A stretch of 64,000 bases of DNA from an uncultured Verrucomicrobiae bacterium (GTDB lineage: Bacteria; Verrucomicrobiota; Verrucomicrobiia; Chthoniobacterales; Terrimicrobiaceae): positions 512,001-576,000 of the forward strand of contig CAVPOC010000003.1 of the NCBI GenBank assembly GCA_963706955.1, given 5' to 3'. The notes under the pieces are model-generated. The model had not been told where the DNA came from. It saw only the letters and a list, made by a program, of their open reading frames with translations, and did no database searches. This document shows positions 2-17,968 of this stretch, one piece after another (position 1 is the stretch's first letter; each line of letters begins with the position of its first letter). The position numbers were made by a program, and so were the translations under genes.

Positions 2-424
2 CCGAAATCACGCCAAAAGACTCGCATTCCGCGGCTCCCTTTTCGACCTCCGGACGACTATTTGCGCGAGGCAATGATTGCTTCGCTGGCCAAAGGCGAT
101 GTCGAACTCGATGTGCGTTTGCAGCTGCAAACCGATCCGCATCTCATGCCGATCGAGAACAATGCTGTGCTCTGGCCAGAAAGGCTTTCTCCGCGTGTTT
201 CCGCAGCTACTTTACGCCTGCCGAGGCAGAAGTTTGACTCTCCGTCGCAAATGGAATTCGCTAAACGCCTCTCCTACAATCCTTGGCATTGTCTTCCGGA
301 ACATCGCCCGTTGGGGAACCAAAGCCGAGCGCGCCACCGCATGTATTCGGAACTATCGCGCCTCCGCCAAAGGATGAACGCTGTTTCCCACTACGAACCC
401 ACGGGCGAGGAGGTTTTCGAGTAG
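2..424 (+). CDS. Catalase-like haem protein, C-terminal part (5' truncated by window edge)
   Basis: Frame is open from position 2. Motifs LQLQTDP..MPIE, LSYNPWH..PEHRPLG..SRAR..MY are typical of small catalase-related proteins. Confidence 0.75.
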   Translation, partial: PKSRQKTRIPRLPFRPPDDYLREAMIASLAKGDVELDVRLQLQTDPHLMPIENNAVLWPERLSPRVSAATLRLPRQKFDSPSQMEFAKRLSYNPWHCLPEHRPLGNQSRARHRMYSELSRLRQRMNAVSHYEPTGEEVFE

Positions 425-429
425 AATTC

Positions 430-1731
430 ATGACCCCGCAGTCAAGCTTCCTGGTTTTGGCCGCGATCACGCCAGAGCGTGAGGCAGAGCTTCGAGAGCT
501 GCTCGACTCCATGAATGATGCTCCCGGACGCGTGAACCCGAACAATGCGCTGATCGCTTTTGCCGAATTCAGCATGATCCATGTCGCACGCTTGCTCATT
601 CTGAAAGATAATTCTCTGGACGACATAAAAGTGTATGGCCTGCCACGGCGCGACTATCCGCTCTACCTCGCTTTTCTCGGCAACATCGACGGGGAACGGG
701 ATGCGTTCTATGAGGAATTGGCTCGACGCGCTCCAAATGGATTGCGCGCACTCTTTTCGTGCTGCGACGACTTCACGTCGGAAACTCGCCTGGTCGAATG
801 GATGAAAAGGCACAGCCGCTCTTCCGTCGCCGGGTATACAAATTGGGTCGGGCGCACCGTCACTCGCGTCCGCGAGGAAGCCACTTTGCATGAGAGCATC
901 GACCGTTTTCTGCAGAGCAATGCGCGTTCCTTCGCGAGTCTGCAAGCACAGGAGATCCACACCGCCGTGCAGAGCTTTGTCGCCGGTGAAAGAGCCGCCG
1001 GTCGCCTCGAGCTCTCCGCGGAGGCTCCCACGCCTCTCGGCTGGCGCCTCCGCAATTTGCTGCACAAGGCTGGACTCCCCTTGCTGGCACTCCTCTTACT
1101 GCCAGTCCTCATCCCGGTTGGACTGATCTTCGCTGTTCGCCTTCGACGGATGGAGAAAACCGATCCGGAGCTCTGCTTCCGGATTGACCAGGAATACGCC
1201 GATGTGCTGGCGCGCTTGGAAGATCACGACGTCACTAATCAATTTACCGCCATGGGAAGCCTAAAACCAGGGACGGTGCGACTTTGGACGGCGACCGCTG
1301 TGCTCCGGACAGTCGACTACGCCGCCCGTCACATCTTCAATCGTGGGCGATTGGCACGGATACGCACCATTCACTTTGCCCGCTGGGTCTTCCTCGATGA
1401 CAAGAAGCGAATGGTCTTTTTCAGTGATTACGATGGAAGCTTCGAAAGCTACATGGACGACTTTATCAACAAATCAGGGTTTGGATTGAATGTAGTCTTC
1501 AGCAACGGGATCGGCTATCCGCGGACCAATTGGCTCATCTTCGATGGATGTGCCGACGAACTGAAATACAAAGAATTCCTGCGCCGCCACACCTTGCCCA
1601 CGCAAGTTTGGTACAAGGCCTATCCGGGATTAACTGCCGCCGATCTGGAAAGAAACACTCGACTCCGAAGGGGTCTGGAATCCTCGAGACTCAACGATGC
1701 GGAGGCTCGCGCGTGGGTGGGACTTTTATGA
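430..1731 (+). CDS. Conserved hypothetical membrane-anchored protein of DyP-peroxidase clusters
   Basis: ATG at 430. Two related IH(V/F)AR(L/W)...(F)..(N/D)(I/Y)DG segments flank one hydrophobic helix. Its stop overlaps the next start (ATGA). Confidence 0.7.
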   Translation: MTPQSSFLVLAAITPEREAELRELLDSMNDAPGRVNPNNALIAFAEFSMIHVARLLILKDNSLDDIKVYGLPRRDYPLYLAFLGNIDGERDAFYEELARRAPNGLRALFSCCDDFTSETRLVEWMKRHSRSSVAGYTNWVGRTVTRVREEATLHESIDRFLQSNARSFASLQAQEIHTAVQSFVAGERAAGRLELSAEAPTPLGWRLRNLLHKAGLPLLALLLLPVLIPVGLIFAVRLRRMEKTDPELCFRIDQEYADVLARLEDHDVTNQFTAMGSLKPGTVRLWTATAVLRTVDYAARHIFNRGRLARIRTIHFARWVFLDDKKRMVFFSDYDGSFESYMDDFINKSGFGLNVVFSNGIGYPRTNWLIFDGCADELKYKEFLRRHTLPTQVWYKAYPGLTAADLERNTRLRRGLESSRLNDAEARAWVGLL

Positions 1732-3266
1732 AGAGTGCAGTGGATTTTGACGACGTGCAAGGGATTGTCCGATTCGGCTATGGGCGGCTGAAGGGAGCTT
1801 CCTACGCGCTGGCGCGAATCAAAAATTTGGAAGCGGCGCGTTCCTGGCTGCTCTCCGCACCCGTCTCCACCGCGATTGAAAGAAATCCGCCACCAGCGAC
1901 CGCCCTGCAAGTTGCCTTTACCGTCGAAGGACTCAGCGCCTTGCACGTGCCCGACGCGGTCATCGGAGCCTTTTCCCACGAGTTTGTCTCCGGAATGACG
2001 CAGGAGAGCCGCTCGCGGAGGCTAGGCGACTTGGAGGCCAACTCTCCATCGAATTGGGCCTGGGGCTCCGGCGCCAAGGTGCCCCATCTCCTCGTAATGT
2101 TCTTTGCGCCACCAGAGCGCCTCGCTGCCTTCAAGGAAAGTAGCACCGGAGCGCTCTGGAACGATGCCTTTGAGGTGAGCTGGCTTTACAGCGCTGACCT
2201 CGATGGCATCGAGCCATTTGGATTCGTCGATGGTGTCAGCCAGCCGAAGGTCGATTGGGAGCAGCAACGCAATATGCTGGAAGGGCAAATCGACTATGGA
2301 AACGTAGTCGCTTTGGGCGAGTTTCTGCTGGGATATCGAAACGAATACGGCAAATACACCGATCGCCCTCTGGTCGATTCCGATGCGGCCACCGCGGAGC
2401 TGCTCGACGCAGAAGACGCGCCTGAGAAGAAAGATATTGGACGCAACGGGACATATCTCGTCATGCGCGACTTGCAGCAGGACGTTCGGCGCTTCTGGCA
2501 GTTCCTCAACAAGCACGCGCACGGCGATCTCGCATTCATGGAACGGCTTGCCACCGCGATGGTGGGTCGCACGCGAACCGGCGATCCGCTAGTGCCGATT
2601 CAACAGGAGCCGATCTCTGGCATCGGACCGGATGCTGATGAGGTCCGGCAGAATCGATTCACCTTTGAGAGCGATCCTGAAGGTGTATCTTGCCCATTTG
2701 GTGCGCATGTGCGGCGCGCCAATCCACGCAATACCGATTATCCGGGGCGTCCTGCCACCCTCCTCTCGAAAGTTGTGACGATGCTCGGATTTGGTCCCAA
2801 AGGTTTCCGTGACGATCTGATCTCTTCTGTTCGCTACCATCGCATCCTGCGGCGCGGTCGCGAATATGGACCCGGTCTCTCTCCCGAGGACGCCCTCGGA
2901 CCCGCGCCGCCGAACGAACCCAGCCGGGGATTGCACTTCATTTGCCTGAACGCGAACATCCTTCGCCAGTTCGAATTCTTGCAGAACGCCTGGATAGCAA
3001 ACACCAAATTTGCCGCCATGAGCGGCGAAAGCGACCCTCTCCTGGGAAATCGTGAAGCCATTTGGGGCTGTCCGCTCACCACTGATTTCAACATTCCAAA
3101 AGGTGATGGCGTGCGACAGCGCGTTAGCGGACTTGAACAATTCGTCACCCTCCGAGGCGGGGCTTATTTCTTCCTGCCAAGCCTTCGCGTGCTTCGCTAC
3201 TTCGCCCAAGCCGGCGCTCCCAAGCGAAAAGCTGATATCTTCCGTCCAGGCGATGCGGCTTCCTAA
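1728..3266 (+). CDS. DyP-type (dye-decolorizing) peroxidase
   Basis: EPFGFVDGVSQP (GxxDG motif), CPFGAHVRRANPR (proximal His), HRILRRGREYG, GLHFICL..RQFEFLQ, RGGAYFFLPS. Confidence 0.9.
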   Translation: MKSAVDFDDVQGIVRFGYGRLKGASYALARIKNLEAARSWLLSAPVSTAIERNPPPATALQVAFTVEGLSALHVPDAVIGAFSHEFVSGMTQESRSRRLGDLEANSPSNWAWGSGAKVPHLLVMFFAPPERLAAFKESSTGALWNDAFEVSWLYSADLDGIEPFGFVDGVSQPKVDWEQQRNMLEGQIDYGNVVALGEFLLGYRNEYGKYTDRPLVDSDAATAELLDAEDAPEKKDIGRNGTYLVMRDLQQDVRRFWQFLNKHAHGDLAFMERLATAMVGRTRTGDPLVPIQQEPISGIGPDADEVRQNRFTFESDPEGVSCPFGAHVRRANPRNTDYPGRPATLLSKVVTMLGFGPKGFRDDLISSVRYHRILRRGREYGPGLSPEDALGPAPPNEPSRGLHFICLNANILRQFEFLQNAWIANTKFAAMSGESDPLLGNREAIWGCPLTTDFNIPKGDGVRQRVSGLEQFVTLRGGAYFFLPSLRVLRYFAQAGAPKRKADIFRPGDAAS

Positions 3267-8219: not shown

Positions 8220-8604
8220 GCACCTTGAACTGCCCAGAAGAATGGCCCCTCGCGCAGCACATGTCGATTTTTGATTTAGACGTGCCGAGCGAAAATCCTG
8301 TCAGAGCGATCGCGATGATTCCGCACCCCCGGCTGCACGCTAGAACCGACTTAATCGCCTCTCTTTCCGTCATCTCGATGGGATTTTTGTCCTCTCAAAT
8401 TTTCATCTGCGTCCGCCCCTACAACTCGTCCAGTTCGGCTAGATAGTTTCGTTAATCTTGCCGTAACGAACGAGAAAACCACATCTCACTTACCTAGAAT
8501 TGGTTGCAAATTAAGGCTCGCTCGCTTGATGGGTGGCACCGCACTCGGGCAATCAAATCGCGAAACTCGGCACTGCAAATGCCTTTGTTCTCTGATGAGG
8601 TCCT

Positions 8605-10122
8605 ATGCCAAAGTATGATATCTTCCTGAGCTACGCTCGCGTAGACAATACGGCTCTGGCCGAACCATATGCCGGCCAGACGGAATGGGTGCTGGCCTTT
8701 AAAGTAGCCCTCCAGCAAGCGGTAGACCTACAGTTGGGCCGCACGAATGACGCCCAATGGTTCTTCGACGCCCAAACCCTGCGCACCGCAGATCATCTAA
8801 CCAATGAGATCGCACAGGCGCTGAATGACACATTGCTCCTCGTAGCCCTCATCTCCCCGGGCTATTTCCATGAGGACTCCTGGTGCACGATCGAGCGCGA
8901 ACTCTTCTTGGAAAAGCTCGGGCCGGACGCAGTCCGGGAGGGGCGCATTTACGCCATCCTCCTCGAAGAGGACATGAGAACCACGTGGCAGGAGCATGGC
9001 TTTGCGGGGGCGCTCGACTTCCCCTTCTATGATAAGAACTCGGCTACCGGCAGGAGCATGCGCCTTGGAGCCGAAGGGAAGATATCCCCAAAGTTTATGG
9101 AGAGAATCTCCGTCCTCGCGACGGATATTGCGAGCCGGATCAGGGAACTGAGAGGGTCTCGTGTCTCGCTGGCCCAGCTAATCACTAAGTCGCACGGCTC
9201 GATCGTCGTTGCCGCGGTGCCCGGCGAGATTGAGGAACGGCGGACAGAACTCGCCAACTTCCTCACCGGCAAGGGCTGGCAAGTGCTGCCCGAGCGCAAT
9301 GAGTGTGACGCCGACCCCCAAAAGTGCGCAACCGCCACTCAGGCGGCCTGCAAGGATGCGACGGCTTTTATTCAGCTGCTTAGTCGATTCCCCTGGAAAC
9401 CGGGCGAGTTCGACCGGGTCCAGTTTCAAGCAGCTCTCGATTCCGGCATGGTTCCGTCTGAAAAGGCCGGAAAATCCGGCCGGCCTTTCTTCCGGTATCG
9501 CAGTGATGACTTTAGCTTGGCGGTGATCACCTCCAATCCCGAGCACAAGAAGTGGCTTCAGGAATACGACGTCGCTGCCCGCTCGATGCCAGCCATTAAA
9601 GAGGAAATCGGCCGATGGTTGGACAACTTTTTGGCAGAGGCGGAGCGAAGTAAGCACAAACCCTCTGCCGGTGCGAATTGTAGTGCAATTACCTTGAGTG
9701 TCTCCTCACACGAGCGCACTTCCCTGGGAAGAAAGCTCTGTGAGAGACTGCGACAGGAATCTCTCTATTCCTATCTGCCCGTCCAGGATGTCCCCGATCT
9801 AAGCCAATGCTTCGACAAGGAGCACGGTTTTGTGGCTGTTTTCGGGAACGAAATTTACACTCAGCGCGTTGAGCAGGTGCTTAAGAATTGGAGGGAATTA
9901 TGGATGGAATATGGCATTAGGCGAGGCTGCTGGCCTCCGATAGCTGTCTTCCTGAGCGATCCTCCGCCGGACAATAAGGCCGAGGCCATCAATGTCTCTC
10001 TCCCCAATATGGAGATCATCTCCTCCTGGGACGATGCGTCCTTCAACGGGTTTGTCACTGCGGTCCAGCAGTACTCCAGTCAGAGCCGCAAGACATCGCT
10101 GGAACCAGTCGCCCGAAGGTGA
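8605..10122 (+). CDS. TIR-domain protein with additional Rossmann-like (DUF4062/TIR-like) domains
   Basis: YDIFLSYARVD...LLVALISPGYF..SWCTIE with the TIR catalytic Glu position retained. GTGA overlap with the next gene. Confidence 0.8.
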   Translation: MPKYDIFLSYARVDNTALAEPYAGQTEWVLAFKVALQQAVDLQLGRTNDAQWFFDAQTLRTADHLTNEIAQALNDTLLLVALISPGYFHEDSWCTIERELFLEKLGPDAVREGRIYAILLEEDMRTTWQEHGFAGALDFPFYDKNSATGRSMRLGAEGKISPKFMERISVLATDIASRIRELRGSRVSLAQLITKSHGSIVVAAVPGEIEERRTELANFLTGKGWQVLPERNECDADPQKCATATQAACKDATAFIQLLSRFPWKPGEFDRVQFQAALDSGMVPSEKAGKSGRPFFRYRSDDFSLAVITSNPEHKKWLQEYDVAARSMPAIKEEIGRWLDNFLAEAERSKHKPSAGANCSAITLSVSSHERTSLGRKLCERLRQESLYSYLPVQDVPDLSQCFDKEHGFVAVFGNEIYTQRVEQVLKNWRELWMEYGIRRGCWPPIAVFLSDPPPDNKAEAINVSLPNMEIISSWDDASFNGFVTAVQQYSSQSRKTSLEPVARR

Positions 10123-13100
10123 AAAAGGTAAAAGCCCCTTACGTGGGCATTCGGCCATTCGAAAAGGAGGACTGGCCGATCTTCTTTGGACGGGAATCTT
10201 TGTCCAACGAACTGCTTTATAAACTGGAGACCAACCGGTTCGTCGCCGTCGTCGGCTCGAGCGGTTCGGGAAAGTCCTCCGTTGTCAAAGCCGGACTCCT
10301 CCCTCTCCTGGAGGATCATAAAGTGATGAGGCGAGCAGAAGAGTGGCTTACTCTGCTCTGCCGTCCCGGAGATGATCCCTGCGGTTCGTTAGCCCGGCGA
10401 TTGGTCGCGGCAAGCTGGCAAATAAAGGGTGCCCCTGATACGGAGCAGGCGTCCATAACTGTGGATCTAATGCGCGCCAGGCTGCGCACCAGTGATCGTG
10501 GGATTATTCCGGTTCTGGAGGACTTCGACCTGCCCACTACCACGCATATCCTCATCGTTGTCGACCAGTTCGAGGAGTTGTTTGGATTCAGGGAAGCCGG
10601 CGCGAGCGACCCGAGTGCTCAAGAGGAAGCTGAACGCTTCGTCACCTGTCTGCTCGACTCGTGCAAGGAGCCAATCCAGCCGATCTCCTCAAAATTGCCT
10701 GCTAGTCTGGCACAGCGCATCTGGGTGGTCCTAACGATGCGGTCGGATTTCATCGGCAATTGCGAGATCTTCCCTGCACTTTCAAAAAAAGTGAGCGAGA
10801 GTCAGTTCCTCGTTCCTATCCTCGATCCCGAGCAGAAGAGGAAGGCCATCATTCGTCCCTCGCTTGCTAGCGAGATAGAGGCAGCCGACTACAGTCCTTT
10901 TAGCTTCGAGGATGGTTTGGTCTCCATTATTGTTAACGAATCGGGCACCCGCATCGATCAGTTGCCCCTCATGCAGCATGCTCTCATGCGCACTTGGACA
11001 AGCGCCGTCCGACGTCCCACTGAGGCGAACGTTCAAGCAATTAACCTGACCGAAAACGACTATGACTCGATCGGTCGCATCGATAAGGCACTCTCTCAAC
11101 ATGCGGAGGCTGCCTTCGCTGAGCTCACCACTGATGACACCGGCGGACGCAACGCCGCTATCGCTCGCCGACTCTTCCTTCTGCTGTGTGATGTCTCCCA
11201 GGAGGGAAAGATCACCCGCCGTCGACCGACAGTCGGTGAAGTGATGGAGGTTGCCCAAGCTTCTCTTGAGGAGGTCAAGAGCGTCGTGGAAGCATTCCAG
11301 AGAGACCACCGCAATTTCATCATTACACGACCCCCCGGTGAAGAGTTCAGCGCGAGCACCCGGCTCGATGTCAGCCATGAGGCTCTCCTTCGCCAATGGA
11401 GCATGCTCAACTCAAGCGAGGGTTCCCTCGAATCTCCCCCAGCGCTCGAAGGAAATGGTGGGAAGTCGCAGCTCAACAGACTCTGGGACTCCATCAAGAA
11501 GTGGCTTCTCATCCAGACTGGCCACCAACGAACTCCCGACCACCAGAGGGTTCCGCGCGGTTGGCTGTCGGAGGAAAGGGACGCCGCCACCGAGCTTCTT
11601 CACTTACGGCAAGACTGCGAACTCCATGCGCAGGGGCGTGGCGACCTTCTCGACATGATTGCTCTGTCTCGGGTGGAAGAGTGGCGAAAATCCACCCAAC
11701 CTTCGGAGCCTTGGGCTCAACGATATCTCGAGGGCAACGGAACATGGGAAGACATCGAAGAATTCATATCCCAAAGCAATGCCGATGTTACCATGGCGCG
11801 ACGTGTTGCTTGGGGAAGTCTAATGCTTATCACGTTAACCTTAGTCACCGTTACAGTGATCGCGATTTCTTCGGCCGCGGCGTCTAGAGCACATGCGCAA
11901 AAGATAAGCGAATTGCGAAAACCGTGGGATCAGCTGCGCGACAAGCAACTCGCAGAAGCCGACATCAAACTCCGAAATAGTGCGACCGGGAAAGTGGATG
12001 CGATGCGTCATTTTATAAACGCCTTGCGAGCCGATCCAAGGTCCGTCGAGACCGCTCGCTTCATATGCAGGTCGTTGGCGCAAGATTCTTGGCTTCGTCC
12101 GCTCACCCCAAGTATTATGGCCCCGGCCGAGACGTCGCTGCTTTGTGCCAGCATTGGGCCGAACAGGAGGATTTATGCTGTAAGCCGCAACGGCTACTTG
12201 CTGGCTCAAAAGGGGAACCAAGCCGCCTTCGAGCAAATACAAGCTCTGATGCCTTCGCTAGTTGTAGAGGCTAAAGGTGCATCGTCGAACGATAGGGTGA
12301 CGCCAGATCCTCGTCCCGGAAAGTTGGTTCGCGTATCCACGGCAAACAACACCAAGCCACCGTCCTCGGATAGCCCAAGCAGCTCCGAAACCGTTGGAAG
12401 CGCGCCCACCGTTGCCCTGCAAGCCGCAGCGTTTTCGAATGACGGAACACGTGTTGCGATTGTCCACGCCGCTTCTAACGAGCAAGACAAAGGCCCCATA
12501 CTGGCAGTATGGAAATGGTCTCAGACAAACTACGTTCGGGTGGCCGTGAGCAATGTCCCCAACTGGTCATCCTTTCGAGTGACGTGGTCGCCAGATGGGC
12601 AAGGATTTATACTCAGTCGATGGGATAGCCCCAGGTGCATCTTATATCGACTTGAAGGGCAGAACTACGATTGTCAGCTCAGACGCAAAGACTTCCCTCC
12701 GGTCTCCATCCAGGCCACGGCTTTCAGTCCTGATGGAAAATTGATAGCCGCCGTCGTTGCTGATCATTCGAGCGAAATTGCAATGTTCGACGCCTACACG
12801 GGTGAGTTTCTTGCCCAAAGGACAATACGCTTAGCAAAGCCGCTGTCTGCAAAGGTCAACCAAATCTTGTTCGGTCCCGGTCTGAACGAGCTCACCTTTG
12901 CGGCGGACTCGTCGGCCGAGATTGTTAACTTAGAGACCGGCAGGATATCACGAGCCGTCCGCACGGGGACTGATGACCGAATAACGCGAATGGCCATGTC
13001 TTCACCGACGCTCGAACAGGGACAGGCGGATTGCGCTCATTGCCGGAGGTCGTATCCATGCCTACTCCGTGGCGGACCTCGACCAGCGCATTGGAGAGCC

Positions 13101-13458
13101 AATTAAGCTAAAAGGACCTATCGGATTCGGATCGTTTGAGACCGACGGCGAACGCCTGCTTACCTGGTCCGGGGTGTGGGGCTCATTCAACGCGGTCCGA
13201 TTGTGGTCCGTTGAGCCTGTTCAAGCGATCGATTGGAAAGATGAGAACCTTGACGATCCAGATAAAGTCCTCCGTTGGTTGCCCGATCTCGCCGAAGCGG
13301 TGACTGGACATGGCGAAAGCTCCGACGAGGATGCCGACCTCTTCCCAGACGTGCCTACATTAGAACACTTTGCGGCAAAGTATCCGGACGAACCTCTTCC
13401 ATCCCAATACAAACAGCTCTGGGCCCGATTTCTGGAACCAATAGGACGTCCAAAATGA
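10119..13458 (+). CDS. nSTAND1-type STAND NTPase with TM helix and C-terminal WD40-like propeller (frameshift near 13020)
   Basis: PYVGIRPF..FFGRE, Walker A GSSGSGKSS, Walker B IVVDQFEE, TMRSDF, LPLMQHAL, SHEALLRQW, a TM segment, then AFSNDG/WSPDG/FSPDG repeats. ORF 13069-13458 continues the propeller after a frame change. Confidence 0.85.
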
Positions 13459-13513
13459 GAAATGTTTCCATGCCCGCCAAATACGACCTGAACACCTAAG
13501 TCACACTGATCCC

Positions 13514-14041
13514 ATGCCCGCCCCATCACACCGTCCCGGACTCGGCGCGAACGCTTACGATGGCGGAGTCAGCTTCCGCTTCTGGGTTCCCTTCGCGAAT
13601 AGGGTCGAAATTATCGGAATTGGAACCTGGACGCCGCCTGGAATCGCCCTTGCCTCCGAAGGTAACGGCTACTGGTCCGCCGACATCAACGGAATCACGA
13701 TGGGGCAGAAATGCAAGGTGCTCGTCAACGGTCTCTGGCGCATGGATCCGCGCGCTCGTGACGTTACGAGTTCAACCGGGAACTGCATTGTAGATAACAC
13801 CTCCTTCGCTTGGAAACATGATTTCGGGATGCCCGGCTGGAACCGGGCCTACCCAGAATACCGCGTCGGGTTTCCTCGCGCCGGACAGTGGTGGGTTCGC
13901 TTCAACAGCGACTGGAATGGCTACAGCCCAGACTTCGGAAATTTCCACAGCTACGACACGACGGCAGACGGAAGCGCTCTGCAGATGCCTTTCCGGCAAC
14001 ATTGGCCTCGGTCCTACACTGCTGTCATTCTCTCTCAATAG
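13514..14041 (+). pseudogene. Glycogen-branching/GH13 enzyme lacking its catalytic barrel (CBM48 fused in frame to C-terminal beta domain)
   Basis: GA..YDGGVSFRFW.PFA..V (CBM48) and DPRARDV..., joined at PGWN|RAY (about 13843) to YRVGFPRAGQWWVRFNSD...YTAVILSQ (amylase C domain). Confidence 0.75.
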
Positions 14042-14083
14042 CTTTAGCCGCAGAGTGCAGCGTCTGAGATCGCCTTCGCAGGA

Positions 14084-16144
14084 ATGAGCGCGAAACCGTC
14101 CAACTTACAGATGAAAAGGCAACCGCTCCTTGTGCACCTGCTGTTTCATCCCGGCTCGGCTTCTTCCCGGGAACTCGCCTCTCAAGTGCATCGCCAACTT
14201 AACGGTGATCTGATTATGCCGGGTCTCCGAGTGCCGACCGTTTTTTGTCCGCACGGAGAGGATAGTGGCCCACCGACCGGTCTTCGACTTGACTTTGCGG
14301 AACGCAATTTCCTCGTCGTGCTGGCGGATGATCGCTTGAGCATCGACGACGCATGGTGCGGGTTCGTGGCAGAGACATGGATGAACGCGCAACCTCCCGG
14401 CGCGCGTTTTGTCCCCATCCAGCTTTCCGAATCCGCGTGGCCGCTTGATCCGCGACTGCAGGGACTTGCCTTTGCCAAAGCCTTTCTGCAACCCGCCGGC
14501 GACGCTCGTCGCGCCTTCGTCGTCCGACGGATTGTTGTCGAGCTTTGCCGTTATTTGGCCAACTTGGAGCCGGTTGCAGAAAGCCAGTTTGAAGCACCGA
14601 TTACGGTCTTTGTCAGTCACGCGAAAGCCGACATCGAAAAGGAGCCGAAAGTAACTGCGCGCCTCATTGAAGCTTTGCAGCAGGATCAGCCCATCGAAGC
14701 GTGGGTCGATTCGGGGGATATCGCAGCGGGCTCGAAATTTGCCGACGCCATCGAAGGTGGAGTCAGGCGGACTTCGTTACTTGCCGTTCTAACGGATACC
14801 TACGCAACGCGCGAATGGTGTCGCGAAGAAATTCTCCTCGCCAAGGAGTATCAGCGCCCGGTGGTGGTGATCGACGCCCTTTCCAGCCACGAAGTTCGCA
14901 GCTTTCCGTATCTGGGCAACGTCCCGCGCCTTCGCTGGGCTGGAGATCCCCAAAAGGGAATTGATTTGCTGCTCAAGGAAACATTGCGCCACTTGCATGC
15001 GACTTCTCTGCTCGCGCAATGCAAGCAGCCGGACGACAACATCTTCACACGACCCCCTGAATTGGCAACTGTGGTGGGACTCGATCCGAAGGTCACCGTG
15101 CTTTATCCCGACCCACCGGTGGGCGTAGGCGAAGCGAGACGATTGGCGAAAGCGAAAATACCTGTGGTCACCCCCTTTCAACGCCTCGCTGCCGAGCAGT
15201 CCCTCAAAGGCCAGCCGATCGCACTTTCAATGTCCGAAAGCACGGACATCGCCCGTTATGGTTTCGATGCTCTCCACATCGAAGGGTGCATGCTCGATCT
15301 CTCGCGCTATCTGCTCATCAAAGGGGCGACCCTTGCCTACGGCGGAAACTTGGGCGCGGAAAGTTACACCCAAAAACTCTTCGAATTGGTTCGCACCCAT
15401 AACGGGCTCGAGGATGTTCGGCCGTTCGAACGGATCGTTAACCACCGTGGATGGCCGCTGCCACGCCTTCGCGTGGAAGACTTGGCTAAGCTCAACCAGG
15501 TTTCTAAAACAGTTCACCTGCCGCGCCCCTCCGATCTCGATGAAACCTTGCATCCAGACTTCGTCAGCGAGCCCACCTACTTTCCTTTCGACGAGTCTCC
15601 CGAACACCGCTTTGCCTGGGCGCGCGGGATGACCGAGATGCGCGCATTCCAATCTGACCGCCCTCGCAGCGGCATCGTCGCGCGGATCGTCCTCGGCGGG
15701 ACATATGGTCCTACCACGAAGGTTTCCGAGGATGGCACTCGCAAAGAGCAGCAGTGGTGTGCGAGCCGCATACCCGGAGTGCTCGAAGAAATCTTCCTTT
15801 CGGTGCTGAGGGAGCAGCCAGTTTTCCTCATCGGAGCGTTTGGCGGCGTCGCCCGAATGACCATTGATTTGATCAGAGGCAAGGATCGACTCGAAGCATC
15901 GTGGGACTACCAAAAACGCGCACCATTTTCAGCCGAGATGAAAGCACTTTACAACCAGCGCGGGGTGGAGTGGATGGACTATTCGGAAATCATTTCTTTC
16001 CTCCGTCAAAAAGGAATGGCTGGAATCAATCCGCTTCTTAGCCAAGAAGAGCAAGAGGAGCTCTTTGAGACAGTCGATCAGGGCCGAATCATCCAACTTG
16101 TCCTCCTCGGATTGGGGCGAGTGTCAGTAAGAGTTGAACGTTGA
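14084..16144 (+). CDS. TIR-SLOG fusion protein (TIR-like N-domain, TIR, SLOG)
   Basis: TIR VFVSHAKAD...WVDSGDI..G..F..AIE...TDTYATREWCREE...RSFPYLGNVP. SLOG IALSMSES..LLIKGATLAYGG..MR..ARIVLGG..PGVLEE..PVFLIGAFGG. Confidence 0.8.
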   Translation: MSAKPSNLQMKRQPLLVHLLFHPGSASSRELASQVHRQLNGDLIMPGLRVPTVFCPHGEDSGPPTGLRLDFAERNFLVVLADDRLSIDDAWCGFVAETWMNAQPPGARFVPIQLSESAWPLDPRLQGLAFAKAFLQPAGDARRAFVVRRIVVELCRYLANLEPVAESQFEAPITVFVSHAKADIEKEPKVTARLIEALQQDQPIEAWVDSGDIAAGSKFADAIEGGVRRTSLLAVLTDTYATREWCREEILLAKEYQRPVVVIDALSSHEVRSFPYLGNVPRLRWAGDPQKGIDLLLKETLRHLHATSLLAQCKQPDDNIFTRPPELATVVGLDPKVTVLYPDPPVGVGEARRLAKAKIPVVTPFQRLAAEQSLKGQPIALSMSESTDIARYGFDALHIEGCMLDLSRYLLIKGATLAYGGNLGAESYTQKLFELVRTHNGLEDVRPFERIVNHRGWPLPRLRVEDLAKLNQVSKTVHLPRPSDLDETLHPDFVSEPTYFPFDESPEHRFAWARGMTEMRAFQSDRPRSGIVARIVLGGTYGPTTKVSEDGTRKEQQWCASRIPGVLEEIFLSVLREQPVFLIGAFGGVARMTIDLIRGKDRLEASWDYQKRAPFSAEMKALYNQRGVEWMDYSEIISFLRQKGMAGINPLLSQEEQEELFETVDQGRIIQLVLLGLGRVSVRVER

Positions 16145-16864
16145 GAGTTCTTGGAGCAAGCCCCAGCTTGCAGACAAGGCTCTTACATCAGGATCGCCCG
16201 ACGACAATTGTGGCGGCGATGTTCTCATCGCCGAAGTTCAAGTTAGTCTCCTACAGAAGAGGCGTTGGCGACCTCTGTTTATTACTTTCATGGTTGGAGG
16301 CTTCGACGACACTCGTAGCTGGGACTCGCAGGATATTTGAGGGGCATTCACACTAGAAAAAGGCCTTCAATTCCATGCGAGCATAACCGCGACTTCCGAG
16401 TGCGCCTGTGCTCGATCGTCGAACTTAGACACCTGGCGCTGCCGCGACTCGCGGTGGCGCTTTTCCATTATGGTAGCGCCAACTTTGCAGCATGACCGAA
16501 AGCAATCGCAGGGACTATGTGATGTGCATCGTAAGGGCTCGGTTTGAGAGCAGCGTTCGAGAACTGCACCCAAGTCGCCTTTTCGTCAAACTAATGCCTT
16601 GCTGTAGCGGCGGTGTCCCCACCGTCGCTTGGGGCTTTTAGTAAAAGCGGATCGACCTGAAGGGCCCATGTCAGCGCGCGGTGCTAATGGTTGCGCGTCG
16701 ATAGTTGAAGGCCGGATCATCCCTGACTGCATTAGGCCCTACCGCTACCGAAAACCCACGTTCAGCAGCTCGAGATTCAACGAATTTGATCGAATATCAA
16801 GTCCGTGCAAATCTGCGAAATCTGTGGACCCCTTCAGCGGTTCGATACCCGGATCGCGTTTTGG

Positions 16865-17158
16865 TCAAACCCAGCGGAAGACGGCCAGAGCGAAAACGAG
16901 CGCGAGGACAAGTCCTCCCCACAGGGGAGTGCCAATAATTCCGAGCCAAGCCAGCAGTATGAAAGCGCTACCGAGCAGCGAAATGAAGAGCCGGTCGCCA
17001 CGCGTCGTATCCAAGCCCAGAACACCGTGCCGTGGATTCCCGCCTGGCGAATACCATTCCCATATCGACATGGCGACCAGGGCCAGCGATATGAAAACAA
17101 AGAACGCCGCCGTTGGCCACGTCCATGCCATCCATGAGAGACCAGTTGTGCCGTCCAC
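16865..17158 (-). CDS. glpU: DUF2160-family small membrane subunit of glycerol-type ABC transporter
   Basis: WMAWTWPTA..F and RHGVL.LDTTRGDRLFISLLGSAFI; last gene of the ABC operon. Confidence 0.8.
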   Translation of the reverse strand: MDGTTGLSWMAWTWPTAAFFVFISLALVAMSIWEWYSPGGNPRHGVLGLDTTRGDRLFISLLGSAFILLAWLGIIGTPLWGGLVLALVFALAVFRWV

Positions 17159-17170
17159 GTGTCCTCCTCT

Positions 17171-17968
17171 CTAGACGCGCCCGAGCGCGAATCCTTTCGC
17201 AATGTAGTTGCGCACGAAATAGATGACGAACGCTCCCGGCACGATGGTCAGGACACCGGCAGCAGCAAGCAGCCCGAGCTCGTAGCCCGACGTGCTCGCC
17301 GTTCGCGTCATTGTTGCCGCGATCGGCTTGGCCTCCACCGAGGTCAACGTCTTGGCGAGAAGCAGTTCTACCCAGGAGAACATGAAACAGAAAAAACAGG
17401 CGACACCGATTCCGGCAGCGATTGTCGGAATGAAGATTTTCACGAAAAATCGCCAGAAGGAGTAACCGTCGACATAGGCGGTTTCATCCAGTTCCTTCGG
17501 CACCCCCGACATGAAGCCCTCCAGAATCCAGACCGCTAAGGGAATGTTGAACAACGTATGGGCGAGCGCGACAGCGATGTGCGTGTCGAACAACCCTACG
17601 GCGGAATAGAGCTGAAGGAATGGCAGCGCGAAAACCGCGGGCGGGGCCATTCGGTTGGACAAAAGCCAGAAGAACAGATGCTTGTCGCCGAGGAAACGGT
17701 AGCGTGAAAATGCATAGGCGGCCGGCAGTGCAACCGAAACCGAAAGCGCCGTATTGATCAGCACATAAATAAGCGAATTGATGTAACCCCAATACCATGT
17801 CGGGTCGGTGAAAATTTTGGCGTAATTGTCGAAGGTGAAGTTCCGCGGCCACAAGGTAAACTGCCCGAGAATCTCGTTGGTCGTCTTGAACGACATGTTC
17901 AAGAGCCAATAGATCGGCAGCATAAGGAACAGGATGTAGACCAACGGCACTAAGTAGCGTAGCCGCAT
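17171..17968 (-). CDS. glpQ: Carbohydrate ABC transporter permease
   Basis: EAA loop VPKELDETAYVDG; hydrophobic helices; operon context. Confidence 0.85.
   Translation of the reverse strand: MRLRYLVPLVYILFLMLPIYWLLNMSFKTTNEILGQFTLWPRNFTFDNYAKIFTDPTWYWGYINSLIYVLINTALSVSVALPAAYAFSRYRFLGDKHLFFWLLSNRMAPPAVFALPFLQLYSAVGLFDTHIAVALAHTLFNIPLAVWILEGFMSGVPKELDETAYVDGYSFWRFFVKIFIPTIAAGIGVACFFCFMFSWVELLLAKTLTSVEAKPIAATMTRTASTSGYELGLLAAAGVLTIVPGAFVIYFVRNYIAKGFALGRV

Follow-up and report, generated by a model that had tools for sequence, protein, structure and literature searches.

Positions 8605-16144 of a 64,000-nucleotide stretch of DNA from an uncultured soil bacterium of the Verrucomicrobiae (family Terrimicrobiaceae; assembly GCA_963706955.1, contig CAVPOC010000003.1, positions 512,001 to 576,000 of the forward strand), referred to here as the window, hold two immune-type modules and a relic gene; they are not a conserved four-gene system. 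Module A consists of g1, a TIR protein, and g2, a STAND NTPase with a predicted transmembrane (TM) helix and a beta-propeller. These two genes lie side by side in all six genomes found to carry a full-type g1 homologue, that of the window included. Module B is g4, a TIR-SLOG protein whose relatives recurrently adjoin genes for TIR-bearing sensors. The gene between the modules, g3, is to judge by its sequence a dead gene of the GH13 type with no part in the system. Whether A and B work as a single Thoeris-like pathway with swappable sensors is a question on which we regard the chances as evenly split.

A preliminary description of this DNA had treated the four genes as one candidate immune locus, in which a STAND sensor lacking a fused effector activates a separate TIR and the TIR-SLOG protein reads or amplifies the product. 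Its observations are confirmed, with corrections, and its interpretation is partly supported, the function of the locus being predicted from sequence and structural models. The open reading frame (ORF) listing agrees with it on four closely spaced, co-oriented genes and on their coordinates:

8605..10122, + strand: g1, TIR protein of 505 amino acids (aa) with three domains
10119..13458, + strand: g2, nSTAND1 NTPase with one TM helix, a helical linker and a beta-propeller
13514..14041, + strand: g3, 175 aa, GH13 relic, not part of the system
14084..16144, + strand: g4, 686 aa, with an N-terminal alpha/beta domain, a TIR domain and a SLOG cluster-2 domain

A TIR protein paired with an nSTAND1 ATPase

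The AlphaFold model of g1 (13-row alignment, pLDDT 73) comprises three alpha/beta domains:

g1 residues 1-185: D1, TIR domain with C94 and E97
g1 residues ~199-350: D2, putative flavodoxin-like alpha/beta domain
g1 residues ~361-494: D3, flavodoxin-like alpha/beta domain

The Pfam match of g1 is to TIR_2 (E 1.5e-7), and E97 is the glutamate of the W-C-x-x-E motif. C94 and E97 are invariant across 13 g1 homologues, and E97 is at least 90% conserved across 39 sequences, so that g1 appears by sequence to be a TIR of the NADase type. The closest structural match of D1 is the TIR domain of RPP1 (Z 13.1), whereas D3 (356-497) aligns to REC/flavodoxin-like folds (Z ~12) and to the TIRs of TRIF/TICAM (Z 10.8-10.9). 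Foldseek with the whole model returned generic Rossmann-type rows, no sirtuin figures among the 50 rows listed for g1, and in the ESM Atlas the C-terminal half falls near DUF4062/TIR clusters (0.91-0.93), a placement that serves as a lead only. In profile-profile comparison, D2 and D3 showed no relation to TIR and SLOG domains, the sole scoring pair being the TIR of g4 and D1 of g1 (96% probability). The preliminary domain assignments hold as far as they went, but had missed D2 and D3, as well as an N-terminal domain of g4 (residues 13-158).

A search of 1.84 billion proteins with the family profile yielded 1427 cluster representatives at E<=1e-30, most of them ~480 aa long and matching the profile end to end, which makes g1 a member of a large unnamed family. 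It is intact, with a full-length match to that family, and has a 78% identical relative in P0154. Within its own order g1 is rare (5/401 genomes at E<=1e-10), and a phylum-wide search with the family profile found it in 2/401 genomes, a count that may be too low because at most three candidates were scored per genome.

The principal features of g2 are as follows:

10137..11411, + strand: nSTAND1 NTPase domain (residues 7-431)
11820..11876, + strand: predicted single TM helix (residues 568-586; Kyte-Doolittle mean 2.23 over 19 residues)
13011..13011, + strand: extra base that breaks the frame of g2 in this assembly

Residues 7-431 match the Pfam family nSTAND1 (PF20703) with E 2.6e-80 and 271.3 bits against a curated cut-off of 27.1. 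Walker A (GSSGSGKS, residues 46-53) and Walker B (DQFEE, residues 149-153) are intact, and G46, G49, G51, K52, D149 and E152-153 are invariant in the homologue alignment (A4). Thus g2 is, by profile score and motifs, a clear member of this family, and the intact Walker motifs, TM helix and propeller of the preliminary description are all borne out, the last by weak Pfam beta-propeller matches. The propeller part also resembles the TIR-TM-WD40 protein that accompanies a g4 relative in locus L032 (25% identity over 122 aa, E 1.6e-4). Because nSTAND1 begins at residue 7, there is no N-terminal fused effector, and the TIR is encoded apart, by g1. Among the Pfam and PADLOC models, none for Avs or NACHT matched g2; PADLOC returned P-loop-level matches alone, to mad3 (25 bits) and mad8.

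As read in the window, g2 consists of an ORF at 10119-13106 and a continuation at 13069-13458 in the +1 frame. A frameshift had been placed near 13020; the break is real as far as the assembly goes, and its site is one extra base at 13011, with frame 0 sensible to ~13010 and the +1 frame from ~13024. We compared positions 8400-16400 with contigs of four independent soil metagenomes (X5, X6, X8, X9). X9 had no cover at 13011, and base 13011 is missing in all three contigs that cover it (one each in X5, X6 and X8, from three studies), which are at least 99% alike to the window elsewhere. Omission of this base restores a single ORF of 1112 aa. Homologues in genomes G004, G001 and G350 are uninterrupted at 1026-1170 aa, and in G013, of the same genus, the coordinates place the two parts in one frame. 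The agreement of the three contigs points to an assembly error or a rare variant as the source of the break, g2 being intact in nature.

In the same comparison, window positions 10551-10582 (32 bases; g2 residues 144-155, the Walker B region) were the sole match of contigs from other organisms, which are present in all four metagenomes and diverge from the window beyond these positions; this nSTAND1 motif is very conserved even as DNA.

The TGA stop of g1 overlaps the GTG start of g2 as GTGA, as noted before and read again in the sequence. A g1-type gene directly precedes an nSTAND1-TM-propeller gene in the window and in G013, G004, G001, G350 and G713, that is, in 6/6 genomes with a full-type g1 homologue, and the two genes overlap in G004 and G001 as well. 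Moreover, TIR and nSTAND1 are fused in single proteins with a TM helix in locus L005 (1761 aa) and in G004 and G001 (1424 and 1425 aa, respectively), which indicates that the two domains are functionally linked.

Prediction of the TIR-STAND complex, which had been proposed as a check, was carried out with g1 and residues 1-450 of g2. Three runs gave ipSAE values of 0.63, 0.65 and 0.61, against 0.00 for the best of three controls, with at least 78% of the contacts common to the runs and a partner pLDDT of at least 74. This mark was reached by 116/157 solved complexes and by 2/215 mismatched pairs, counts that apply only roughly because the g1-g2 model used its own alignments. The predicted interface places g1 423-471, in D3, on g2 20-38, 63-71, 186-191 and 246-253. 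The model supports binding of g1 to the ATPase of g2 and, together with the adjacency and the fusions, the earlier proposal that a STAND protein without a fused effector is paired with a separate TIR; that g1 is the TIR partner of g2, acting in trans, is likewise supported.

Several observations were made at related loci. In G013 (locus L021, ~12176-13650) the g1 ortholog lies in five pieces on both strands, with stops present and residues 42-207 inverted relative to the rest, and the adjoining g2 ortholog is broken too. In G017 (locus L022, 9805-10153) only the first 117 residues of g1 remain, beside the GMC oxidoreductase gene that also adjoins the locus in the window, with a 609-aa GH13-type gene on the far side of the GMC gene. 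A prokaryotic YEATS-TIR fusion (236 aa) is encoded in G004 at L023:4793-5503, within a multi-TIR cluster that holds a g1-g2-like pair.

A conserved TIR-SLOG protein

The product of g4 was modelled with high confidence (pLDDT 88.7, pTM 0.88) and contains three domains:

g4 residues 13-158: N-terminal alpha/beta domain
g4 residues 173-313: TIR domain with C246 and E249
g4 residues ~373-682: SLOG cluster-2 domain

The TIR-SLOG fusion described previously is upheld by matches to TIR_2 (E 4e-13) and to SLOG cluster2 (PF18163; E 1.6e-51, 175.9 bits against a cut-off of 25.3), the latter running over residues 374-660 and profile positions 2-264 of 264. The glutamate of W-C-x-x-E is E249, and C246, E249 and the G584/G587/G588 motif are invariant in 39 homologues. 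The earlier statement that both TIRs keep this glutamate is therefore correct, and by this token g4, too, is a putative NADase-type TIR. The gene is intact and matches its family over its full length. Mean column identity is 57% over 39 sequences, with individual members down to 42% identity; among 8000 candidates scored, 514 matched, most of them 668-700 aa long. In the phylum sample, TIR-SLOG proteins occur in 4/401 genomes (that of the window, G528, G543 and G488).

The best structural match of the SLOG domain is the SLOG of BcThsA bound to 3'cADPR (7uxs_A; Z 14.4, root-mean-square deviation 3.4), with 190 of 196 residues aligned at 18% identity, a likeness of fold only. The TIR aligns to those of SPARTA, SARM1 and BcThsB (Z ~12.8), and the top Foldseek match of the whole protein is whole ThsA. 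The N-terminal domain showed no profile-profile relation to TIR or SLOG domains; its proximity to TIR-like clusters in the ESM Atlas (0.92-0.95) is only a lead. P0012 is a relative with 76% identity, and P0058 is a TIR-SLOG protein with an added caspase domain (PF00656).

Genes for TIR, DUF4062 or STAND proteins, mostly single-pass TIR-TM-WD40/TPR proteins, adjoin 23/30 of the other TIR-SLOG loci (6/9 genome loci, 14/18 metagenome loci and 3/3 further phylum genomes). At the nine genome loci, 52/117 ORFs were scanned, those nearest the TIR-SLOG gene. From 21 metagenome loci, three shorter than 2 kb were dropped and 62/80 ORFs of the remaining 18 were scanned; L045 was counted without a scan because its ORF layout equals that of L002, and the proteins of L032-L034 are taken to carry a TIR because they are 84% identical to that of L036. 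The partners are listed by locus or genome:

L003: NACHT-FGE neighbour
L004: nSTAND1-WD40 and an X-TIR protein
L005: SEFIR/TIR and TIR-nSTAND1
L006, L007: several TIR-WD40 and ThsB_TIR genes
L010: TIR-AAA_16
L029-L034, L036: TIR-TM-WD40 directly downstream of TIR-SLOG
L035, L037: DUF4062-TM-TPR
L038: TIR-TPR
L041: AbiJ_NTD3-TIR
L043: TIR and ThsB_TIR
L046: three TIR genes
L048: TIR, HET and Mrr
G528: two TIR genes, an OLD-type nuclease and a recombinase fragment
G543: a TIR gene, two ThsB_TIR genes, HET, NUDIX and a PLD-helicase
G488: patatin, TIR-AAA_16, a class-3 lipase, a SLOG2-CHAT protein and an X-TIR-WD40 protein

STAND genes are thus adjacent to TIR-SLOG in L003, L004, L005, L010 and G488, and ThsB_TIR genes in L006, L043 and G543. 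The closest relatives of g4 (72-76% identity) have a different partner from that in the window, a TIR-TM-WD40 protein encoded downstream, and in L033 an ORF resembling the tail of g2 lies two genes upstream of TIR-SLOG. No TIR or STAND neighbour appeared among the ORFs scanned at L002, L009, L039, L042 and L047, L045 is counted with L002, and L008 shows one flank only. The G488 locus also encodes a 1196-aa protein (L059:8942-12532) in which a SLOG cluster-2 domain is followed by a C-terminal CHAT (caspase-like) protease; this protein and P0058, as variants with an added protease, fit a sensor-plus-effector logic.

Two further features of these loci were noted. A protein of 388-413 aa with no Pfam family (L006:8772-10013 and L007:8826-9992, 54% identical to each other) overlaps the TIR-SLOG gene at its start in these two loci of planctomycete type and may be a further conserved partner. 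At L043 (2382-4455, 9468-10079) and L047 (4113-5204, 7960-9878), integrases and genes of the DNA-hypermodification type (5-hmdU DNA kinase, a thymidylate-synthase-like gene, MazG_C and Nmad2) stand beside TIR-SLOG, which suggests carriage on prophages or other mobile elements.

A relic gene between the modules

The preliminary description had counted g3 among the components, as a mini-protein with a carbohydrate-binding module; this assignment does not hold. The Pfam matches of g3 are to CBM_48 (E 2e-4, just under the cut-off) and Alpha-amylase_C (E 0.014). Its residues 1-111 share 85% identity with the N-terminus of P0127, a partial "branching enzyme", and residues 110-175 share 62% with the final 68 residues of P0138, another such protein. 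Apart from a near-identical copy, no database protein spans both halves, homologues covering 63% or 38% of g3, and its relatives carry ORFs of 609-641 aa as against 175 aa. The catalytic (beta/alpha)8 domain expected between CBM48 and the C-terminal sandwich is absent. Matches at head and tail with nothing between them point to an in-frame internal deletion in a GH13-type gene, with loss of the catalytic domain. One population, represented by a single contig at depth 5.7 and hence weak evidence, has in addition lost one base at 13835.

A predicted membrane helix between enzyme and repeats

A strong hydrophobic helix lies between the TIR/STAND part and the repeats in g2 and its homologues, in the TIR-nSTAND1 fusions and in the nSTAND1 protein of L004, and an equivalent helix occurs in the TIR-WD40, TIR-TPR and DUF4062-TPR partners at TIR-SLOG loci. 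Both classes of TIR-SLOG partner, the TIR-WD40/TPR proteins and the STAND-plus-TIR pair, accordingly share a single helix between the enzyme part and the repeats. When charge bias was re-tested, 15/18 sensor or partner proteins had one such helix, with 72 K and R residues within 15 residues before it and 43 after. Since TIR and ATPase domains depend on the NAD+ and ATP of the cytoplasm, the repeats would lie beyond the cytoplasmic membrane if the helix is truly single-pass, and the propeller of g2 is probably so placed. The charges of g2 taken alone run the other way, with two K and R residues before the helix and four after, which speaks against this topology. Periplasm-facing sensors of STAND conflict proteins have been proposed in the portion available of PMC10907252.

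Genomic setting

The genome (4.16 Mb in 15 contigs, 92.5% complete) contains just four TIR_2 matches, two of which lie in this locus, 5.6 kb apart; rough arithmetic puts the chance of two such genes lying this close at ~2%. Four nSTAND1 matches exceed the cut-off. One of these genes, outside the window at G000:C5:42622-44049 (242 bits), has three TGA and two TAA codons inside the match, and these five internal stops mark it as a pseudogene. A contig of X8 spans 13260-14847, bridging the modules, so that the order g2-g3-g4 holds in another sample. In the RNA runs, 5-14% of the sampled words were present.

The gaps on either side of g3 measure 55 bases (g2-g3) and 42 bases (g3-g4). The remaining feature of note is the following:

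16435..16461, + strand: terminator-like hairpin with 12 pairs, 9 of them G-C, followed by a T-run (consensus scan only)

This hairpin, 3' of g4, may mark the end of the transcription unit, and the same scan found no comparably strong terminator-like site between g1 and g4. The flanking genes encode a GMC oxidoreductase, a response regulator and a sugar ABC transporter. Three ORFs of 181, 482 and 578 aa (16629-17174; 283-3266) matched no Pfam family at E<=0.001, and the first of these, just 3' of g4, is without an equivalent at the TIR-SLOG loci examined. PADLOC and HMM searches, suggested earlier as a check, recognised no named system at the locus with the PADLOC and NCBIfam models, the best rows being PDC-S66, mad3, FxsC_Nterm (44 bits against a cut-off of 130) and ThcB4.

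Two modules, one pathway or two

If the two modules form one pathway, its operation could be pictured as follows. A membrane-spanning, NLR-like switch, g2 would hold its nSTAND1 ATPase in the cytoplasm, and g1, translationally coupled to it, would dock through D3 on the N-terminal face of that ATPase and supply the TIR enzyme that other members of the family carry as a fusion. Binding of a ligand at the propeller might then lead to ATP-dependent clustering of g2; clustering would gather the TIR domains of g1, which could cleave or cyclise NAD+ by means of Glu97; the NAD-derived product would bind the SLOG domain of g4, as 3'cADPR binds ThsA; and the TIR of g4, activated through Glu249, would deplete NAD+ or amplify the signal, with growth arrest or abortive infection as the outcome. 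The presence of TIR or STAND genes at 23/30 other loci and the ThsA-like SLOG (Z 14.4) favour the part assigned earlier to TIR-SLOG as a reader, and the g1-g2 pair is the sole candidate TIR-sensor partner of g4 in the window. The relatives P0154 (of g1) and P0012 (of g4) both list a longest contig of 114,401 bases and may share it. On balance, functional coupling of A to B has about even odds.

A number of findings weigh against coupling. The neighbourhood comparison, likewise suggested in the preliminary description, upheld the g1-g2 pair (6/6) but found modules A and B together in no other genome examined. TIR-SLOG was not found genome-wide in G013, G017, G004 or G001 (96, 74, 96 and 94% complete, respectively), nor in G713 at E<=1e-30, nor in the 20 kb checked around the pair in G350; conversely, 0/29 other TIR-SLOG loci have a g1 homologue beyond TIR-to-TIR likeness. 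The claim that the four genes form one system fails on these counts. Many of the loci with a partner are near-duplicates (L029-L034 with L036; L035 equal to L037), which leaves ~16 distinct architectures with a partner and five without, in which TIR-SLOG stands alone (L002/L045, L009, L039, L042, L047). Because g3 was once full-length and unrelated, the modules were formerly further apart. Within the same genus module A is decaying, scrambled in G013 and a stump in G017. Finally, the metabolic flanks imply that the locus is not in an obvious defence island, and no named system was recognised there.

Many of the same facts would suit two independent neighbours, with g1 and g2 a self-contained NLR-like device in which the TIR is an NAD+-depleting effector, g4 self-contained or otherwise partnered, and no signal passing between them. 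We consider this possible, if doubtful. The g1-g2 pair occurs without TIR-SLOG in five other genomes (G350 checked over 20 kb only), TIR-SLOG occurs without g1-g2 in 29/29 other loci examined and is solitary in five distinct loci, its nearest relatives use a downstream TIR-TM-WD40 partner, and a relic intervenes between the modules. Independence is harder to reconcile with the lack of any other TIR partner near g4 (the ORF at 16629-17174 being familyless) when relatives have one in 23/30 loci, with the proximity of two of the genome's four TIR genes, with the recurrence of STAND genes next to TIR-SLOG, and with the co-orientation and short gaps of the genes and the lack of a strong terminator between them.

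A bolder form of the one-pathway reading, which we think unlikely as it stands, is a bacterial Toll-like pathway. Single-pass receptors with WD40, TPR or propeller repeats outside and a TIR, or a TIR-recruiting STAND, inside would generate an NAD-derived messenger for a TIR-SLOG hub of ~670 aa; the receptors would report phage adsorption or injection or damage to the envelope, the hub would execute or amplify the response, and the window would represent the STAND-gated form. In either form of the reading, a membrane-spanning helix would mean that immune-type NAD signalling is set off from beyond the cytoplasm, following the logic of animal Toll-like receptors (TLRs). To our knowledge, bacterial TIR signalling (Thoeris) and STAND defence proteins sense infection in the cytoplasm, and we know of no demonstration in bacteria of Toll-like immune NAD signalling triggered from outside.

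The same topology lends itself to a function other than phage defence, namely, an outside-in signalling or kin-conflict device whose propeller senses a cue from the envelope, a neighbouring cell or the environment, and whose TIR/SLOG part converts this cue into a nucleotide signal controlling physiology or programmed death. The single helix, if spanning, the metabolic surroundings and the periplasm-facing STAND conflict sensors proposed in the accessible text of PMC10907252 are in line with such a device. Defence or mobile genes at other TIR-SLOG loci (G528, G543 and L048; integrases in L043 and L047) and a sporadic distribution typical of conflict genes (TIR-SLOG in 4/401 genomes of the phylum, g1 in 5/401 of the order) argue for defence instead, and we regard this alternative as quite improbable. 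Least probable of all is a decaying remnant in which g2 is truly frameshifted and the cluster no longer works: the break at 13011, the relic g3, the broken module in G013, the stump in G017 and the second nSTAND1 gene with its five stops would accord with it, but the extra base is missing in 3/3 independent soil-metagenome contigs and g1 and g4 are intact, full-length members of their families.

Comparison with known systems

The preliminary description did not recognise the combination as a described system, yet TIR sensors with a SLOG-bearing effector are an already known kind, represented by Thoeris types I and III, as are nSTAND1 systems (in the available part of PMC8195603). Type I Thoeris combines a TIR sensor (ThsB) with a SIR2-SLOG effector (ThsA). 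The likeness lies in one or more TIR proteins acting alongside a SLOG-bearing protein with a NADase-type catalytic domain, and in a g4 SLOG with the fold of the cADPR-binding ThsA domain (Z 14.4). The differences are that a TIR replaces SIR2 in g4, which matched no SIR2 family of Pfam at E<=0.1; that g4 has an extra N-terminal domain and a SLOG of Pfam cluster 2 (PF18163); and that g1, the candidate maker of the signal, is no small ThsB but has 505 aa in three domains and is linked to a STAND ATPase. ThsB_TIR (PF08937) did not match g1 at E<=0.1, the matches of g1 being to TIR_2 and TIR, and no PADLOC Thoeris model matched at the same threshold.

Type III Thoeris, credited to van den Berg et al. 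2024 in the portions available of 10.64898/2025.12.03.692087 and PMC13276650, comprises several TIR proteins and a SLOG effector, the SLOG being placed in the SMF/DprA group by the part available of PMC13276650. It resembles our locus as a multi-TIR locus with a SLOG component, the signal being uncharacterised in both, and differs in that the SLOG of g4 belongs to cluster 2 and is fused to a TIR, a comparison drawn from those partial descriptions only. No DprA family of Pfam was listed for g4 at E<=0.1, and the NCBIfam model ThcB4 (type III Thoeris) gave g4 15.0 bits and g1 13.1 bits against a cut-off of 220. The term "TIR-SLOG" in PMC9503650 refers to Thoeris-type systems. In the literature searched we found no published, tested TIR-SLOG (cluster 2) fusion, g1 family or split g1-nSTAND1 pair; the ~30 effector types of the 2025 Thoeris survey may include a TIR-SLOG form.

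The nSTAND1 counter-invader proteins, defined computationally, have a central NTPase between effectors at the N-terminus, TIR among them, and repeat sensors at the C-terminus, as set out in the part available of Kaur, Iyer, Burroughs and Aravind 2021 (PMC8195603). Compared with that account, g2 is a clear nSTAND1 member (271 bits), whereas its TIR is encoded by a gene of its own that overlaps g2 and specifies two additional domains, ATPase and propeller are divided by a TM helix, and a TIR-SLOG gene follows. WD40 and FGE-type sensors are mentioned among prokaryotic STANDs in the excerpted text of PMC13581612.

Other STAND proteins, of the Avs and bNACHT kinds, reportedly act against phages (work ascribed to Gao 2022 and Kibby 2023). 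The known ones are cytosolic single chains with fused effectors. The logic of a STAND NTPase sensor is common to them and g2, but g2 has no fused effector, possesses a TM helix and matches no Avs or NACHT model.

By analogy, the arrangement, in which repeats for sensing and a cytoplasmic TIR flank one TM helix, is that of animal TLRs, and STAND-driven assembly of TIRs recalls plant TIR-bearing NLRs (TNLs) such as RPP1, the top match of g1 D1. The homology seen to TLRs and TNLs is confined to domains, and the bacterial proteins differ from both in having WD40/TPR instead of LRR sensors, a predicted N-in, C-out orientation and TIRs that keep the catalytic glutamate.

Both families, that of g1 with 1427 representatives at E<=1e-30 and that of TIR-SLOG with more than 500 proteins, are large and bear no functional name in the libraries searched. 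What appears to be new here, as far as sequence can tell, is a TIR acting in trans on a membrane-spanning STAND switch beside a conserved TIR-SLOG hub, and the g1-g2 pair, with its predicted docking surface at g1 423-471, is open to testing as an example of effector recruitment in trans by a STAND switch.

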